This document shows, one piece after another, positions 50,370-56,422 of a DNA stretch of 64,000 bases. The notes under the pieces were generated by a model, which saw only the letters and a program-made list of their open reading frames with translations, did no database searches and was not told the DNA's origin. The position numbers were made by a program, and so were the translations under genes. The stretch's first letter is position 1. Each line of letters opens with the position of its first letter. Location of the stretch: NCBI GenBank assembly GCA_945903265.1, contig CAMDNQ010000010.1, forward strand, positions 6,372 through 70,371, read 5' to 3'. This DNA comes from Candidatus Sulfopaludibacter sp. SbA3. GTDB taxonomy: Bacteria > Acidobacteriota > Vicinamibacteria > Vicinamibacterales > UBA2999.

Positions 50370-50924
50370 CTGGTAGAACGCGAAGTCAAACTGCGGTTCG
50401 ACACGCCCGAAGGGGCGCGTCGAACCATCCTCGCCGCCGGCGCGACATTGCTTCGTGGCCGGCGGCTCCAGGAAGACGCCCTTCTCGATACGCCTGACGG
50501 AACGCTGCGCCAGCGGCAGTGCGCGCTGCGTGTCCGTACCGAGTCGGGCCGCAGCATCGTCACGTTCAAGGGCCCCGTGCAACCCGGCACGATGAAGATC
50601 CGGGAAGAAATCGAAACAGCCGTCGGCGACGGCGACGTCCTGCTGCAGGTCTTCGAGCAGCTCGGATTCCGGGTCTGGTTCCGGTACGAAAAGTACCGGG
50701 AGGAATACGCCGGCGACGACCTCGTCGTGGCGATCGACGAGACGCCGGTCGGGACCTTCGTGGAGCTCGAGGGCGGCGAAGCGGCGATTCAGGCCATGAC
50801 CCACGCGCTGGGCAGGACGGAAGCCGACTACGTGCTCGACTCCTATCGCGGCCTCTTTCTGCAGCACCAGCAGAAGTACGGCTACGAGACGCCCCACATG
50901 TTTTTTCTCGACGACGACGAATGA
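50370..50924 (+). CDS. CYTH-domain protein (class IV adenylate cyclase / triphosphatase family), probable CTG start
   Basis: The frame opens after a TGA at 50349-51. AAGGAG at 50354-59 precedes the CTG at 50370 by 10 nt. The ExExK motif (EREVK, 50376-50390) lies upstream of the first TTG (50448) used by the ORF track. Confidence 0.6.
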   Translation: MVEREVKLRFDTPEGARRTILAAGATLLRGRRLQEDALLDTPDGTLRQRQCALRVRTESGRSIVTFKGPVQPGTMKIREEIETAVGDGDVLLQVFEQLGFRVWFRYEKYREEYAGDDLVVAIDETPVGTFVELEGGEAAIQAMTHALGRTEADYVLDSYRGLFLQHQQKYGYETPHMFFLDDDE

Positions 50925-51868: not shown

Positions 51869-52896
51869 GTACCGAGCGGCGAACATCGGACGGCGCCGAC
51901 GCCCGCGCTCGCATCGATCAGTTCCTCGAAGAGGCGGGCCTTCGAAACAGCGGCGCCCGGATCGTGCCGCTGACGGGCGACGCGTCGGATCGGCGCTATT
52001 TCCGGATTCTGCTGCGCGACGCGCCGTCGCAGGTGCTGGCGGTTCATCCCGGCGCCATCGACTTCGACCGGCTGCCTTTCGTCAACGTGGCGCGGCTGTT
52101 CAGCGCGATGCCGGTGCCCGTGCCGCGGATTCTCGGGCATTCGAATGCGCTCGGCGTGATGGCGCTCGACGATCTGGGCGACGTGACGCTCCAGGCGCAT
52201 CTTGGCGCCGCGTCACCGGCCGAGCATGCGGCCCTCTACCGCGAAGCGGTCTCCCTCATCGCGACCATCCAGTCGCGCGGCCGCGAGCTCGAATCCCCTG
52301 ATTACGTTCCGTACGGCGTGGCGTTCGACGTCGAGAAGCTCACCTGGGAGCTGAACTTCTTCACGAAACACTTCCTGGAAGGATACCGAGGCGCGGCGCT
52401 GACCGCCTCGGAGCGCACTGTTCTTGACGCCGAATTCGCGGCCATCGCCACGGAGCTGGCCTCAGAGCCGCGCGTGCTGTGTCATCGCGATTACCACAGC
52501 CGCAATCTGATGCTGCATGACGGCAGCCTCTACATCATCGACTTCCAGGACGCCCGCATGGGGCCGGACACCTACGACCTCGTCTCGCTGCTGCGCGACT
52601 CCTATGTGGACTTCACGGAGCAGCAGATCGAGGAACTGATCGCGTTCTTCCTCGCGAAGCGGAGCGGGCCGTCCGCCGGCGAGGACGATTTCCGGCGCCG
52701 GTTCGACCTGATGGCCCTGCAGCGGAACCTGAAGGCGCTCGGCACGTTCGGGTTCCAGACCATGTCGCGCGGCAACACGGTCTACATCCAGTACATCCCG
52801 CGCACGTTGACCTACGCGCGCGACAACCTTGTCCGCTATCCGCGTTTCGGCCGCCTCCACCAGCTGCTCGCCTCGCACCTCGACGAGCTTCGCTGA
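51865..52896 (+). CDS. aminoglycoside-phosphotransferase-fold sugar kinase (AmgK-like)
   Basis: The ATG at 51865 overlaps the upstream stop as ATGA. Motifs are LTGDASDRRYFRI, HRDYHSRNLML and IDFQDA. Confidence 0.75.
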   Translation: MSTERRTSDGADARARIDQFLEEAGLRNSGARIVPLTGDASDRRYFRILLRDAPSQVLAVHPGAIDFDRLPFVNVARLFSAMPVPVPRILGHSNALGVMALDDLGDVTLQAHLGAASPAEHAALYREAVSLIATIQSRGRELESPDYVPYGVAFDVEKLTWELNFFTKHFLEGYRGAALTASERTVLDAEFAAIATELASEPRVLCHRDYHSRNLMLHDGSLYIIDFQDARMGPDTYDLVSLLRDSYVDFTEQQIEELIAFFLAKRSGPSAGEDDFRRRFDLMALQRNLKALGTFGFQTMSRGNTVYIQYIPRTLTYARDNLVRYPRFGRLHQLLASHLDELR

Positions 52897-52930
52897 GCCC
52901 TCGGAGGTTGCGGAGGGAACGGGACAGGAT

Positions 52931-52955
52931 CACAGGAGTAGCGGAGGCACGGAGG
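52931..52955. repeat. left arm of an imperfect inverted repeat bracketing the low-GC cassette
   Basis: CACAGGAGTAGCGGAGGCACGGAGG compared with the reverse complement of 55470-55494, CACAGGAGGAACGGAGAAACGGAGG, gives 20 of 25 identities by hand alignment. Confidence 0.5.
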
Positions 52956-53199
52956 CGCGCGGAGGCCAGAAGGCGATGATGCGCGGTCCGCCCGATGCGA
53001 GGGCAGACGCCGATGCAGCGACGTCCGCCGTGCAATTCCTGCTACGCCAACCCGCATGTCCCGCCCCGCAGCGCGCCCATCCTTCCACCCTAAGGCACAC
53101 GCCATGAGCGAGTTCTAACACTTTTGAAGGTCTCCGTCCGTGGCGCTACACTGCAGCCCTCGTAGACGCATTGAATTATCCAGATCCGCGTACTATTCG

Positions 53200-53228
53200 T
53201 TGACCGCGCTCGAGCCAGTACCAAGAAT
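53200..53228 (+). promoter_or_regulatory. candidate sigma70-like promoter (TTGACC-17 nt-AAGAAT) ending 6 nt before the ATG at 53235
   Basis: The hexamers and spacing were read directly. No Shine-Dalgarno sequence lies between them and the ATG, so the transcript would be leaderless or nearly so. Confidence 0.25.
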
Positions 53229-53234
53229 CACCAT

Positions 53235-53981
53235 ATGCCACACGAGCCAATCAACAGGAGCCTCGACATCCTCGGCGTGAAACCGATTGCTGACGCGGTT
53301 GATACGGCCACTACGGGTGTCGTCAAGGGCGCGAGCGCCTTCCTAAGCCGCATTTGCCTGCCAGCAGCGGAGGAATTTGGCTTGCTCCTGCAAGACAAGG
53401 TTAGGTTGTGGCGCGCCAGGAATGCCGCCGCGGTCGCTCAGAAGGCGGAGCGGATTCTCGGGCCGGATAACGGTCCGACTGTACAAGCACATCCGAGATT
53501 GGTTGGTGTCGTCCTGGAGGAGGGTTCGTGGATGGATGTCGATCAGGTCCAAGAGATGTGGGCCGGCCTCTTGGCATCATCTTGCAGTCCCGCTGGTGAT
53601 GACGACAGCAACCTGATGTTTGCGGATCTGCTTGCAAGACTGTCCGTTTCACAAGCGCGTCTGCTGAACCATGTCTGTTCCGTTGCTACGAAGGGTTTGA
53701 GCCCAGGCGGGCTTCTAGTGGCCGAGGGGCTTTGCCCAACCCTGCAAGAGCTGCAGGCGATCTCGGGTGTGACAGATGTGCACAGATTGGACAGAGAAAT
53801 CGACCACATGCGAAGCATGGAACTGCTGACAATCAGCAGCGGGTTCTCGCCTCGCTCGAAGAACCAAGCTGACCTGACTCCGACCACTCTTGCTATTCAA
53901 ATGTACGCACGCTGTAAGGGCCATCGGGGCGAGCCGGAGAGCTATTTCGGACTCTCGCCCGTCGCGGGCCCAGCAGCCTAG
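53235..53981 (+). CDS. Abi-alpha / DUF4393-like protein
   Basis: 248 aa. ...GVKPIADAVDTATTGVVKGASAFLSRICLPAAEEFGLLLQDKVRLWRARNA...HPRLVGVVLEEGSWMDVDQVQEMWAGLLASS... matches my memory of the Abi_alpha family pattern. The gene has lower GC than its flanks. Confidence 0.6.
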   Translation: MPHEPINRSLDILGVKPIADAVDTATTGVVKGASAFLSRICLPAAEEFGLLLQDKVRLWRARNAAAVAQKAERILGPDNGPTVQAHPRLVGVVLEEGSWMDVDQVQEMWAGLLASSCSPAGDDDSNLMFADLLARLSVSQARLLNHVCSVATKGLSPGGLLVAEGLCPTLQELQAISGVTDVHRLDREIDHMRSMELLTISSGFSPRSKNQADLTPTTLAIQMYARCKGHRGEPESYFGLSPVAGPAA

Positions 53982-54165
53982 CAAAGGAATGGAGCCGACG
54001 GGCGAGCGCGCGCGGATCATTTCATGGCGGACGCGATCGCGATCGGCACCGCACTCGCTTAACACGGTTTGCAGCCGCCGGCGGATGCCGTGACAATGAC
54101 GCGCAGGTGAAAACTTGGCTGTTAGGTGGACAGCATCACATGAAGCTCGAACGGGGGGAACTCTC

Positions 54166-54795
54166 GTGGCATTGACCGAAGCATACGTTCAGACACCAGG
54201 GGTGATCCCAGAACTGTTCCGGCAGATCCGCCAAGGCCAAGCTCCCAGTCAGTTCACGGTCCAGCACCTAAAGGACTTGGGGTACGGTTCATCGAATCAC
54301 CGGTTGTTTCTTCCGTTGCTGAAGGCGCTGGGGTTTCTGACAGCAGATGGCAAGCCCACTGCCCGCTACTCAGAGTACCGTGACGAAACTCAGTCACGAC
54401 GAGTGCTGGCAGATGCCCTCAAGCAAGCCTATGCCGACCTCTTCGTACTTCGGTCCAAGCCGGCCGACGCCGACCGGGCGCTCTTCGAGGGCAAGTTCAA
54501 GAGCACCCACAACACCAGCGATCGAATGGCCAAGTTGATGGCCTCTACTTTCTTCGCGCTGTTGCCACTCGCGGATCTCGACGCGAGTCCAAAACAGGCT
54601 AGCGCAGAAGAGCGGAAGACGGACGTCGTCGGAAAGGAAGACGCCGGCAAGGGAGATGAACAAGGGCAGCGCGGAACTGGTCGACGGGCGGGGACGAGCT
54701 TGCACTACAACATCCAGATCCACCTTCCGGCGACGAAAGATATCGAGGTCTACAACTCGATTTTCAAGTCTCTTCGGGAGCATCTCCTTGAGTAG
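54166..54795 (+). CDS. DUF5343-like protein
   Basis: The GTG at 54166 is preceded by GGGGGG. ...YVQTPGVIPELFRQIRQGQAPSQFTVQHLKDLGYGSSNHRLFLPLLKALGFLTADGKPTARYSEYR... matches the DUF5343 pattern from memory. The C-terminal tail is LHYNIQIHLPATKDIEVYNSIFKSLREHL. The track start at 54115 is also possible. Confidence 0.6.
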   Translation: MALTEAYVQTPGVIPELFRQIRQGQAPSQFTVQHLKDLGYGSSNHRLFLPLLKALGFLTADGKPTARYSEYRDETQSRRVLADALKQAYADLFVLRSKPADADRALFEGKFKSTHNTSDRMAKLMASTFFALLPLADLDASPKQASAEERKTDVVGKEDAGKGDEQGQRGTGRRAGTSLHYNIQIHLPATKDIEVYNSIFKSLREHLLE

Positions 54796-55375
54796 TGACC
54801 TGAAGGACTTCAGAGACTTTCTATTTCGTGGCCTGATGCTGGAGTCGGAGGCGGGCAGCTTTCAGGCTGCTGGTATTCAGGTCGGCGCCGATATAGGCCA
54901 GGCCGAGGAGCGTCTTCTTTCAGACGCCATCGCACCCTTCGGCGTGGTGCTTCGCAACAGGGCCATTGAGATGGGGCGCCTTTACGTGGTTCTTCATTGC
55001 TTTGAGAACTCGATCCGTACTTTTATCCGTGAAACCCTTGAGGAAAAAGACGGGCCGGCCTGGGCGGAGAAGCTGCCAGCCAAGGTAAAGAAGTACGCCG
55101 AGGACCGTCAGAAGGAGTCCATCGAGGATTCGTGGCTCGAAGGGGAGAAGGGTGATCTGCTCGGCTACGTCGACTTCGCCCACTTGGCGTCCATCATCAT
55201 TGAAAAGTGGGCTCACTTTGAGGACATCGTTCCATCGCAGCATTGGCTCAAGCAGCGAATGGAAGAGATGGAAAAGGCAAGGCACTTCATCGCTCACAAT
55301 CGGATGCTCCTGCCGACAGAGTTCCAACGCCTTTACATGTACATCGCCGATTGGAATCGCATCATCGGGTTGTGA
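54788..55375 (+). CDS. Swt1-like HEPN-domain protein (putative RNase)
   Basis: The frame of track ORF 54656..55375 was used. The TTG at 54788 overlaps the upstream stop by 8 nt; the alternative is the ATG at about 54836. ...CFENSIRTFIRETLEEKDGPAWAEKLP...LLGYVDFAHLASIIIEKWAHFED...ARHFIAHNRML contains an Rx4H HEPN motif (RHFIAH). Confidence 0.6.
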   Translation: MSSDLKDFRDFLFRGLMLESEAGSFQAAGIQVGADIGQAEERLLSDAIAPFGVVLRNRAIEMGRLYVVLHCFENSIRTFIRETLEEKDGPAWAEKLPAKVKKYAEDRQKESIEDSWLEGEKGDLLGYVDFAHLASIIIEKWAHFEDIVPSQHWLKQRMEEMEKARHFIAHNRMLLPTEFQRLYMYIADWNRIIGL

Positions 55376-55469
55376 AGCCGCCTAACCACGGCTGCAGCCG
55401 TTGGCGGTTCTCCTAACGCGAAGGCGGGCGTTGCCGGCCAAGATGTAGTTGCCGTCGCGATCCGTTCGT

Positions 55470-55494
55470 CCTCCGTTTCTCCGTTCCTCCTGTG
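55470..55494. repeat. right arm of the inverted repeat bracketing the low-GC cassette
   Basis: See the left arm at 52931-52955. Confidence 0.5.
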
Positions 55495-55549
55495 AAACCG
55501 TTGCCTCTGCGTCCTCCGCCACCGGAGTCCTCCTGTTACCATTAACTGC

Positions 55550-56422
55550 TTGTCCGATCACCGCTTCGGCGTCTCGACGCATCTCTTTCATGAATCGCGG
55601 CTGACGCGCGATCACCTCGTCCACATCGCGGCCCATGGCTTCGAGACCGTCGAGCTCTTTGCCACCCGATCCCATTTCGATTATCACGATGAGAAGGCGG
55701 TCGCGGCGCTGGCGGAGTGGCTGGCCGACACGCGCCTCGAGCTGCACTCGGTGCACGCCCCGATTTTCGACGGACTTCGCGCGGGACAGTGGGTCGGTCC
55801 CTTCTCGAGCGGCGCCTCGGACGCCGCCGAGCGCGACAAGGCCGTCCGCGAGGCGCGTGCGGCCATCGATCTCGCGCGCCGGCTCCCCTACCGATATCTC
55901 GTGCTGCATCTGGGTGTCCCCGACGCGGCACCGGGCGCCACGCGCAGCAACCAGCGTGACTCCGCGCGGCGGAGCCTCGAGGAGATTGCGGCTGCGGCAG
56001 CCGACGCGGGCGTCGAGGTGGCCGTGGAAGTCATCCCGAACGTGCTCTCGAGCGCCGAAGCGCTGGTGGATCTGATCGAGGAGCAACTGGACGGCATCGA
56101 CGTGGGGATTTGCCTGGACTACGGTCACGCGCATCTGATGGGCGACCTCGGCGAGGCAATCGAATGCGTTGGAGGCCACTTGACAACGACGCACGTCCAC
56201 GACAATCGCGGCCGCGAGGACGATCATCTCGTGCCGTTCGCCGGATCCATCAACTGGGATACCGCGATGATGGAAACCCAGAAGATTGGCTACGACGGCG
56301 TGCTGATGTTCGAGGTCGCCGACACGGGCAACCCGATCGACGTGCTCACGCGCGCGGCGGCAGCGCGCGAACGACTCGAAAACACGTTCGTCACGTTTGA
56401 GGAACTACCCCAGGAACCCTAG
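55550..56422 (+). CDS. sugar phosphate isomerase/epimerase (xylose-isomerase-like TIM barrel)
   Basis: 290 aa with a TTG start. It has the pattern of conserved His/Glu/Asp (ELFA..., LVLHLG, EVIPN, DYGHAHL, HVHDN). Confidence 0.75.

Follow-up and report, generated by a model that had tools for sequence, protein, structure and literature searches.

The segment described here covers positions 52897-55549 of the window, the 64,000-nucleotide stretch of a Candidatus Sulfopaludibacter sp. SbA3 contig that was analyzed as a whole, and lies between the stop codon of an amgK-like kinase gene (52896) and the start codon of a sugar-phosphate isomerase gene (55550). As a first-pass annotation of this DNA had reported, it holds three open reading frames (ORFs) on the same strand (+), and public gene calls on identical contigs concur, but the starts of two of them had to be moved. 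ORF1 (53235-53981) encodes 248 amino acids (aa) and belongs to the Abi-alpha family (PF14337). ORF2, a DUF5343 gene, starts at the GTG at 54166 and encodes 209 instead of 226 aa (54166-54795). ORF3, which encodes a Swt1-type HEPN protein, starts at the TTG at 54788 and encodes 195 instead of 239 aa (54788-55375), giving an 8-nt overlap with ORF2; both corrections are backed by profile coordinates and by conserved N-termini in homologue alignments. The first-pass annotation had taken the three genes for one undescribed defence cassette. Our comparisons indicate that the segment is probably not one new system but two independent, horizontally mobile conflict modules, ORF1 and the DUF5343-HEPN pair, which are neighbours by chance.

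The composition of the segment differs from that of its surroundings. Its G+C content is 58.8%, against 65.9% in the rest of the window, and among 1,227 sliding windows of equal length (mean 65.6%, sd 1.66%) those with the lowest G+C all overlap it. The G+C content at third codon positions (GC3) is 0.655 in ORF1, 0.686 in ORF2 and 0.694 in ORF3, as opposed to 0.80-0.89 in ten flanking genes. The first-pass annotation had noticed both the dip in G+C between amgK and the isomerase gene and an enrichment of A/T-ending codons, and both remarks stand, the second because GC3 is lower in ORF1-ORF3 than in the flanking genes. It had also seen no integrase, transposase or tRNA at the borders; likewise, we found no tRNA there, the closest being 23 kb off, and the genes up to about 8 kb from the segment are devoid of integrase and transposase domains. 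The synteny check that it had proposed, namely whether amgK and the isomerase gene adjoin in relatives that lack the insert, came out in its favour: of the 74 related metagenome loci in which both are visible (isomerase identity, 63-83%), 73 have the two genes directly adjacent, with a spacer of -4 to 159 nt (median, 52), and this adjacency appears to be the ancestral state. Composition and absence from relatives together uphold the claimed foreign origin of the segment, whose genes are of conflict type. That the three are native housekeeping or RNA-processing genes with an incidental dip in composition would fit their place between conserved operons and the lack of a mobility gene at the borders, but it is refuted with near certainty by synteny and composition, since they are missing from 73 of the 74 related loci and from a sister strain of 97.6% identity, have the lowest G+C of the window with a GC3 reduced by 0.12-0.23, and have homologues scattered over unrelated phyla.

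All three family assignments made at first pass agree with the profile searches. ORF1 matches Pfam Abi_alpha (2.4e-13, 51 bits, curated cut-off 29), residues 67-211 aligning to profile positions 9-155 of 196, and it has more than 1,000 homologues, with annotations naming the Abi-alpha family. ORF2 matches DUF5343 at 2.7e-41, above the curated cut-off, and ORF3 matches HEPN_Swt1 (PF18731) at 1.2e-12 and 48.6 bits (curated cut-off, 27.5); NCBIfam gave zero matches for all three proteins. The AlphaFold2 model of ORF1 (predicted local distance difference test [pLDDT] score of 90) consists of a long N-terminal helix and a globular domain whose C-terminal part is winged-helix-like. The Protein Data Bank (PDB) holds nothing related to ORF1 by sequence, and Foldseek returned zero matches at E <= 0.001 and only weak ones of winged-helix type. 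PADLOC gave a non-significant PDC-S47 match alone (0.006), and PHROGs only a marginal one. Abi-alpha itself is EF2833 of Enterococcus faecalis V583 prophage 6, which aborts infection by phage Idefix via premature lysis (PMC6356687) and is the one protein for which this phenotype is shown. ORF1 shares with it the PF14337 domain (formerly DUF4393), a similar size (248 versus 272 aa) and the single-gene layout, and differs in that EF2833 is prophage-borne in a Gram-positive host, whereas the ORF1 subfamily is chromosomal and solitary. By analogy with this Enterococcus prototype, ORF1 would kill or lyse the infected cell early.

ORF2 and ORF3 match the two components of a catalogued defence candidate nearly end to end. 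Against PADLOC PDC-M34A, ORF2 scores 2.1e-73, with residues 19-224 of the long ORF on model positions 2-207 of 208; against PDC-M34B, ORF3 scores 2.8e-63 over model positions 4-191 of 192. The genes also stand in the PDC-M34 order, A then B, adjacent and on one strand, with the 8-nt overlap. PDC-M34 belongs to a set of 145 phage defence candidates, which were selected for occurring inside BREX, DISARM or type I restriction-modification loci and are explicitly untested (bioRxiv 10.1101/2024.01.29.577857); the supplement lists it as cassette CAS_00130, FAM_01148>>FAM_01657, with two families and a count of 97 (Payne et al., bioRxiv 10.1101/2024.01.29.577857). Neither DUF5343 nor PDC-M34 is mentioned in the main text of the papers in the literature searched, and PDC-M34 is not among the candidates included in a later validation study. 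Judging from these matches, the DUF5343-HEPN pair corresponds to the catalogued but untested PDC-M34. The window pair differs from the catalogued setting in lying outside any restriction-modification, BREX or DISARM locus, in a housekeeping operon beside an Abi-alpha gene.

The two genes of the pair are strictly linked. When one genome per species was scanned, 424 DUF5343 relatives were obtained, and in all of the best 80 loci, which were kept, a HEPN gene lies immediately downstream of the DUF5343 gene. These loci are spread over Proteobacteria, Acidobacteriota, Bacteroidota, Chloroflexota, Verrucomicrobiota, Planctomycetota, Spirochaetota and others. Tabulated together with the closest relative of the pair (locus L001, proteins 89% and 96% identical) and four copies of the window's own locus, they make up 85 loci, in which the overlap measures 8 nt in 52, 11 nt in 12 and 4 nt in 4. 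The pairing is kept down to 35% identity, in two viral contigs, and homologue searches with the two proteins gave similar totals of 2,183 and 1,999 matches.

No such linkage joins the pair to ORF1. A relative of ORF1 stands near the pair in none of the 80 genome loci, nor in L001, where the preceding gene is unrelated to ORF1, nor in the two viral contigs; the neighbours of the pair in 37 genomes include no recurring third gene. Conversely, the pair is absent from four other ORF1-family contexts. The closest non-identical ORF1 relative (76%, L086) lies beside an integrase and an IS91 transposase, and those in L177 and L178 are solitary and flanked by housekeeping genes. The first-pass annotation had suggested looking for the trio elsewhere, and it was not met in other genomes: we saw it in this organism alone, identical on 18 contigs. 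Judged by these contexts, ORF1 is a stand-alone single-gene module.

These counts largely refute the three-gene reading of the first-pass annotation. A single undescribed three-component defence system would account for the adjacency of the genes, their common strand and similarly low G+C, for the lack of any terminator-like site found between ORF1 and ORF2, and for the identical trio on 18 contigs from several samples. However, all 18 contigs represent the same organism (99.99% identity), the spacer between ORF1 and ORF2 measures 184 nt as against the 8-nt overlap within the pair, and the co-occurrence data show each part without the other, so that we regard such a system as very improbable. 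The term "undescribed" does not hold either, because the pair matches PDC-M34A/B and Abi-alpha is already a named family. What is new is a member of the Abi-alpha family and, separately, a member of PDC-M34, stacked at a strain-variable site. An apparent new three-gene system is thereby resolved into two known kinds of module side by side, which spares a misdirected experiment.

The anatomy of ORF2 falls into three parts, described here by the pLDDT of its AlphaFold2 model, by conservation (the fraction of sequences with the commonest residue) and by the ratio of nonsynonymous to synonymous substitution rates (dN/dS). The N-domain (codons 1-140, 54166-54585) is modeled at pLDDT >90, with a conservation of 0.69 and a dN/dS of 0.026; it begins with a helix-helix-helix-hairpin arrangement and continues as a helical bundle. 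The linker (codons 141-177, 54586-54696) has a pLDDT <50, a conservation of 0.20 and a dN/dS of about 1.0. The C-terminal strand-helix motif LHYNIQIHLPATKDIEVYN.IFKSL.EHL (codons 178-209, 54697-54792; pLDDT about 70-76, dN/dS 0.057) is, at 0.89, the most conserved segment in either protein of the pair, and it persists in DUF5343 relatives at 30-40% identity. DUF5343 as a whole comprises 1,193 cluster representatives, and profile-profile comparison found no homology between it and the Abi-alpha family (probability 0.8%). Two members of the family deserve mention. P0397 (L176:1322-2077), a single metagenomic sequence, has a hydrophobic, transmembrane-like tail in place of linker and C-terminal motif, with no recognizable HEPN gene downstream, and may represent an alternative effector architecture or an assembly artefact; downstream of P0527, a distant relative, the ORF is cut at the contig end and is not recognizably HEPN.

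ORF3 carries the R-x4-H motif R165-HFIA-H170 (55280-55297), in which R165 and H170 are invariant, and the following N171 nearly so, among 49 homologues. Its dN/dS relative to the L001 copy is 0.024, and a sequence search found no relative of it in the PDB. ORF3 is the predicted RNase effector of the pair. The dN/dS values of 0.02-0.06 outside the linker and the invariance of R165 and H170 indicate that ORF2 and ORF3 are functional genes under purifying selection.

A toxin-antitoxin-like or abortive-infection module is the most economical reading of the pair. ORF3, in which the R-x4-H site of a Swt1-type HEPN endoribonuclease is intact, would be the effector or toxin, and ORF2 would be translationally coupled to it via the 8-nt overlap. 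DUF5343 may be the partner that keeps the HEPN RNase silent, with the C-terminal strand-helix motif on its flexible linker docking onto the HEPN protein, while the helical, winged-helix-like N-domain would bind nucleic acid or sense a trigger. If DUF5343 were lost, titrated or modified in the course of infection or stress, the RNase would be set free, and growth arrest or abortive infection would follow.

In the main alternative, DUF5343 would activate: as a sensor or adaptor it would bring the HEPN RNase to a target, for instance foreign nucleic acid, and activity would require both proteins. The strong constraint on the N-domain (dN/dS 0.026) and its conservation over the 1,193 cluster representatives speak for such a role, as do the retention of the C-terminal motif at 30% identity and the replacement of the P0397 tail by transmembrane segments, as in sensor-effector fusions. 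But it is the antitoxin gene that usually stands upstream and overlaps its partner, Foldseek lends no support to ligand or nucleic-acid binding, and P0397 is one metagenomic sequence; we consider this alternative unlikely.

Another reading that we rate with similar reserve, as not very probable, holds that the pair is a selfish toxin-antitoxin (addiction) module without a role in phage defence and that ORF1 is likewise a selfish or decaying passenger. The small operon of two overlapping genes, its patchy distribution across phyla and its usual occurrence as a solitary islet amid housekeeping genes, outside large defence islands, all suit an addiction module, and in a related strain a classical PemK toxin-antitoxin pair occupies the same slot. 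However, PDC-M34 owes its selection to an occurrence within BREX, DISARM or type I restriction-modification loci, hsdM directly follows the closest relative of the pair, and AbiU, AbiGi, restriction-modification and DrmA genes are sporadic neighbours. Strong purifying selection contradicts decay, and toxin-antitoxin and abortive-infection roles are compatible with each other.

Several observations count against our picture of two mobile conflict modules. No terminator was detected between ORF1 and ORF2, and together with their common strand this makes co-transcription of ORF1 and the pair possible in this strain. The association of the pair with defence is weak: its neighbours in 37 genomes are heterogeneous and mostly housekeeping genes (ribonucleotide reductase, CTP synthase, tRNA synthetase), with defence genes, and also TniB, appearing sporadically, and such neighbourhoods fit a plain addiction module as well as defence. 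Upstream of the pair, no conserved operator-like palindrome was found, only a weak GTTRG motif in 15 of 78 loci. DUF5343 has no relative in the PDB by sequence or fold, the best Foldseek matches (E about 0.8) being GntR/FCD regulators, and because no structural match is significant, "winged helix" is here a mere reading of the order of secondary structures. ORF1 is linked to the tested Abi-alpha by a profile-level match alone, as a distant relative, and none of 50,697 phage and 72,556 plasmid records contains its subfamily; these collections are essentially empty for the HEPN protein as well. Finally, our searches found no later test of PDC-M34, and no experimental study exists of any protein close to ORF1.

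If the toxin-antitoxin-like or abortive-infection reading of the pair is followed, known systems offer partial parallels. HEPN-MNT (HepT-MntA) is, as is established for that family, likewise a two-gene module in which a HEPN RNase toxin with an Rx4-6H motif is accompanied by a cognate upstream partner (HEPN survey, PMC3710099). In the window, by contrast, the partner is a DUF5343 protein without a nucleotidyltransferase domain (Pfam finds DUF5343 alone, NCBIfam nothing), so that neutralization of the AMPylation type is not expected, and ORF3 falls into the Swt1/Abi2 clade and not into the nucleotidyltransferase-associated one. The abortive-infection proteins AbiD/AbiF (Abi2) belong to the same defence-linked HEPN clade (Abi2/Swt1) as ORF3 (Anantharaman et al. 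2013, PMC3710099); they are single proteins with a proposed non-coding RNA partner, whereas the window HEPN has a strictly conserved protein partner. With type II toxin-antitoxin systems, ORF2-ORF3 share the small bicistronic layout in which the upstream gene overlaps the downstream one. PDC-M34 gains an anatomy and testable predictions: the R165/H170 effector site, a neutral DUF5343 linker, an ultra-conserved C-terminal motif and strict pairing across phyla.

The site of insertion varies between strains, although the first-pass annotation had described a small fixed cargo cassette. In the sister strain (L087), identity is 97.6% on both sides of the cargo, up to 52965 and from 55463 onwards, and the stretch in between codes for a 144-aa GNAT acetyltransferase; in a relative of 90% identity (L089, L090) a PemK toxin and its antitoxin lie directly upstream of the isomerase gene. 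The cargo types seen at this slot are accordingly a GNAT gene, a PemK toxin-antitoxin pair, and Abi-alpha with PDC-M34. Two amgK-side contigs from the same samples as L089 and L090 (L091 and L092) stop 334 nt after amgK, as is typical of assemblies at variable sites. That L091 and L092 end, and L089 and L090 start, exactly at the slot suggests that several alleles coexist in the communities. At the strain level, the locus offers a clean natural case of small defence or addiction cargo being replaced at a hairpin-marked site in a housekeeping operon.

In the window, the cargo is bracketed by an imperfect inverted repeat of about 60 nt, whose two arms would form this hairpin. The left arm (52897-52965) follows directly on the amgK stop and is built of CGGAG(G) units; the right arm (55463-55540), where homology with the sister strain resumes, is built of CCTCCG units. 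Their cores (52930-52955 and 55470-55495) pair over 26 nt with 85% complementarity, and joined by an artificial GAAA loop the arms fold into a hairpin of about 60 bp (-86.6 kcal/mol, z = -6.6). Both arms also occur in L087 and the left one in L091, and the five arm sequences were aligned; the repeat is unique within the 64 kb and, among 1.7 Mb of fetched loci, limited to this lineage. The amgK-isomerase spacers of insert-free relatives are often long hairpins too (z <= -3 in 9 of 38 distinct spacers of >=40 nt). Several of them (L101, L102, L104, L108, L121, L148) consist of lineage-specific short tandem repeats, e.g., CAATGC/GCATTG or GGCTTT/AAAGCC. The window arms look like two halves of such a hairpin split by cargo, which would place the insertion at the apex of a former amgK-isomerase hairpin. 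The slot does not resemble an integron cassette, a transposon or an integrative island: the neighbouring genes carry no recombinase domain, there is no tRNA within 23 kb and the repeat is unique to the slot.

Between the left arm and ORF1, a conserved block of about 75 nt (53127-53205, +; L087:7470-7545; L091:9255-9335) emerged from a three-way alignment. It directly precedes three different cargoes in three lineages, has no Rfam match (a search of 52700-55700 gave zero matches) and behaves like a fixed expression platform. TTGAAG (53124-53129) and TACACT (53147-53152), separated by 17 nt, are promoter-like, as a consensus match only. Since the block is conserved in every lineage, the cargo-specific DNA is confined to about 53206-55462; the whole insert measures 2.3-2.5 kb. 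The non-coding spacer before it (52966-53126) is about 76% identical with L091/L092 and absent from L087, and contains neither an Rfam match nor a credible small ORF. Two ideas may be entertained jointly, as a tentative possibility about which we are more doubtful than hopeful: DUF5343-HEPN may form a toxin-antitoxin or abortive-infection family of new mechanism, in which a sensor-like helical domain holds a Swt1-type RNase through a tethered C-terminal strand-helix peptide of almost invariant sequence, and the hairpin apex may act as a recombinase-independent hot spot that swaps promoter-less cargo behind a conserved promoter/leader block.

Some minor features concern the individual modules. 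A promoter-like site, TTGACC-17-AAGAAT (53200-53228), ends 7 nt before the ATG of ORF1, and no Shine-Dalgarno sequence follows it; translation of ORF1 from a leaderless mRNA is therefore conceivable. Near the ORF1 relative in L086, an ASCH-domain gene (L086:7831-8316) lies 80 nt downstream on the same strand, close to the integrase and the IS91 transposase. In the spacer between ORF1 and ORF2 (53982-54165), a Shine-Dalgarno-like GGGGGGA precedes the GTG of ORF2 by about 6-12 nt. The spacer also contains, at 54121-54140, the motif GTT[AG]G[GCT]...ACA, which 15 of 78 loci have at 25-60 nt before the DUF5343 start (background, 3.8%), among them the upstream regions of L008, L011, L012, L033-L035, L044, L055, L062 and L080, and which could serve the pair as a promoter or operator. 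Right after the ORF3 stop, a stretch that contains a palindrome (CGGCTGCAGCCG; 55379-55407, +) is a possible terminator stem without a T-run. A weak direct-repeat copy of it at 54056-54084 (72% over 29 nt) brackets the pair; by our estimate, 3 kb of sequence would yield such a match by chance, and we discounted these repeats and gave them no weight.

The neighbourhood of the pair in L001 includes a phage-type integrase, an IS110 transposase and a type I restriction-modification system. The DNA homology between the window and L001 ends at the coding limits (54166-55380), and we withdrew an interpretation of these ends as the border of a mobile unit, because at synonymous divergences (dS) of 0.5-0.8 non-coding flanks would be unalignable anyway. 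The gene unrelated to ORF1 that directly precedes the L001 pair (L001:7114-7893) is unannotated, low in G+C and 259 aa long, and may be further cargo stacked between the integrase and the type I restriction-modification system. Outside the segment, public calls of the CYTH-domain gene upstream of the NDP-sugar transferase gene (50448-50924) differ between strains: its length is 110 aa in the window's own contig but 158 aa in the sister strain, where it has a CYTH match, which suggests a start-codon or frameshift difference.

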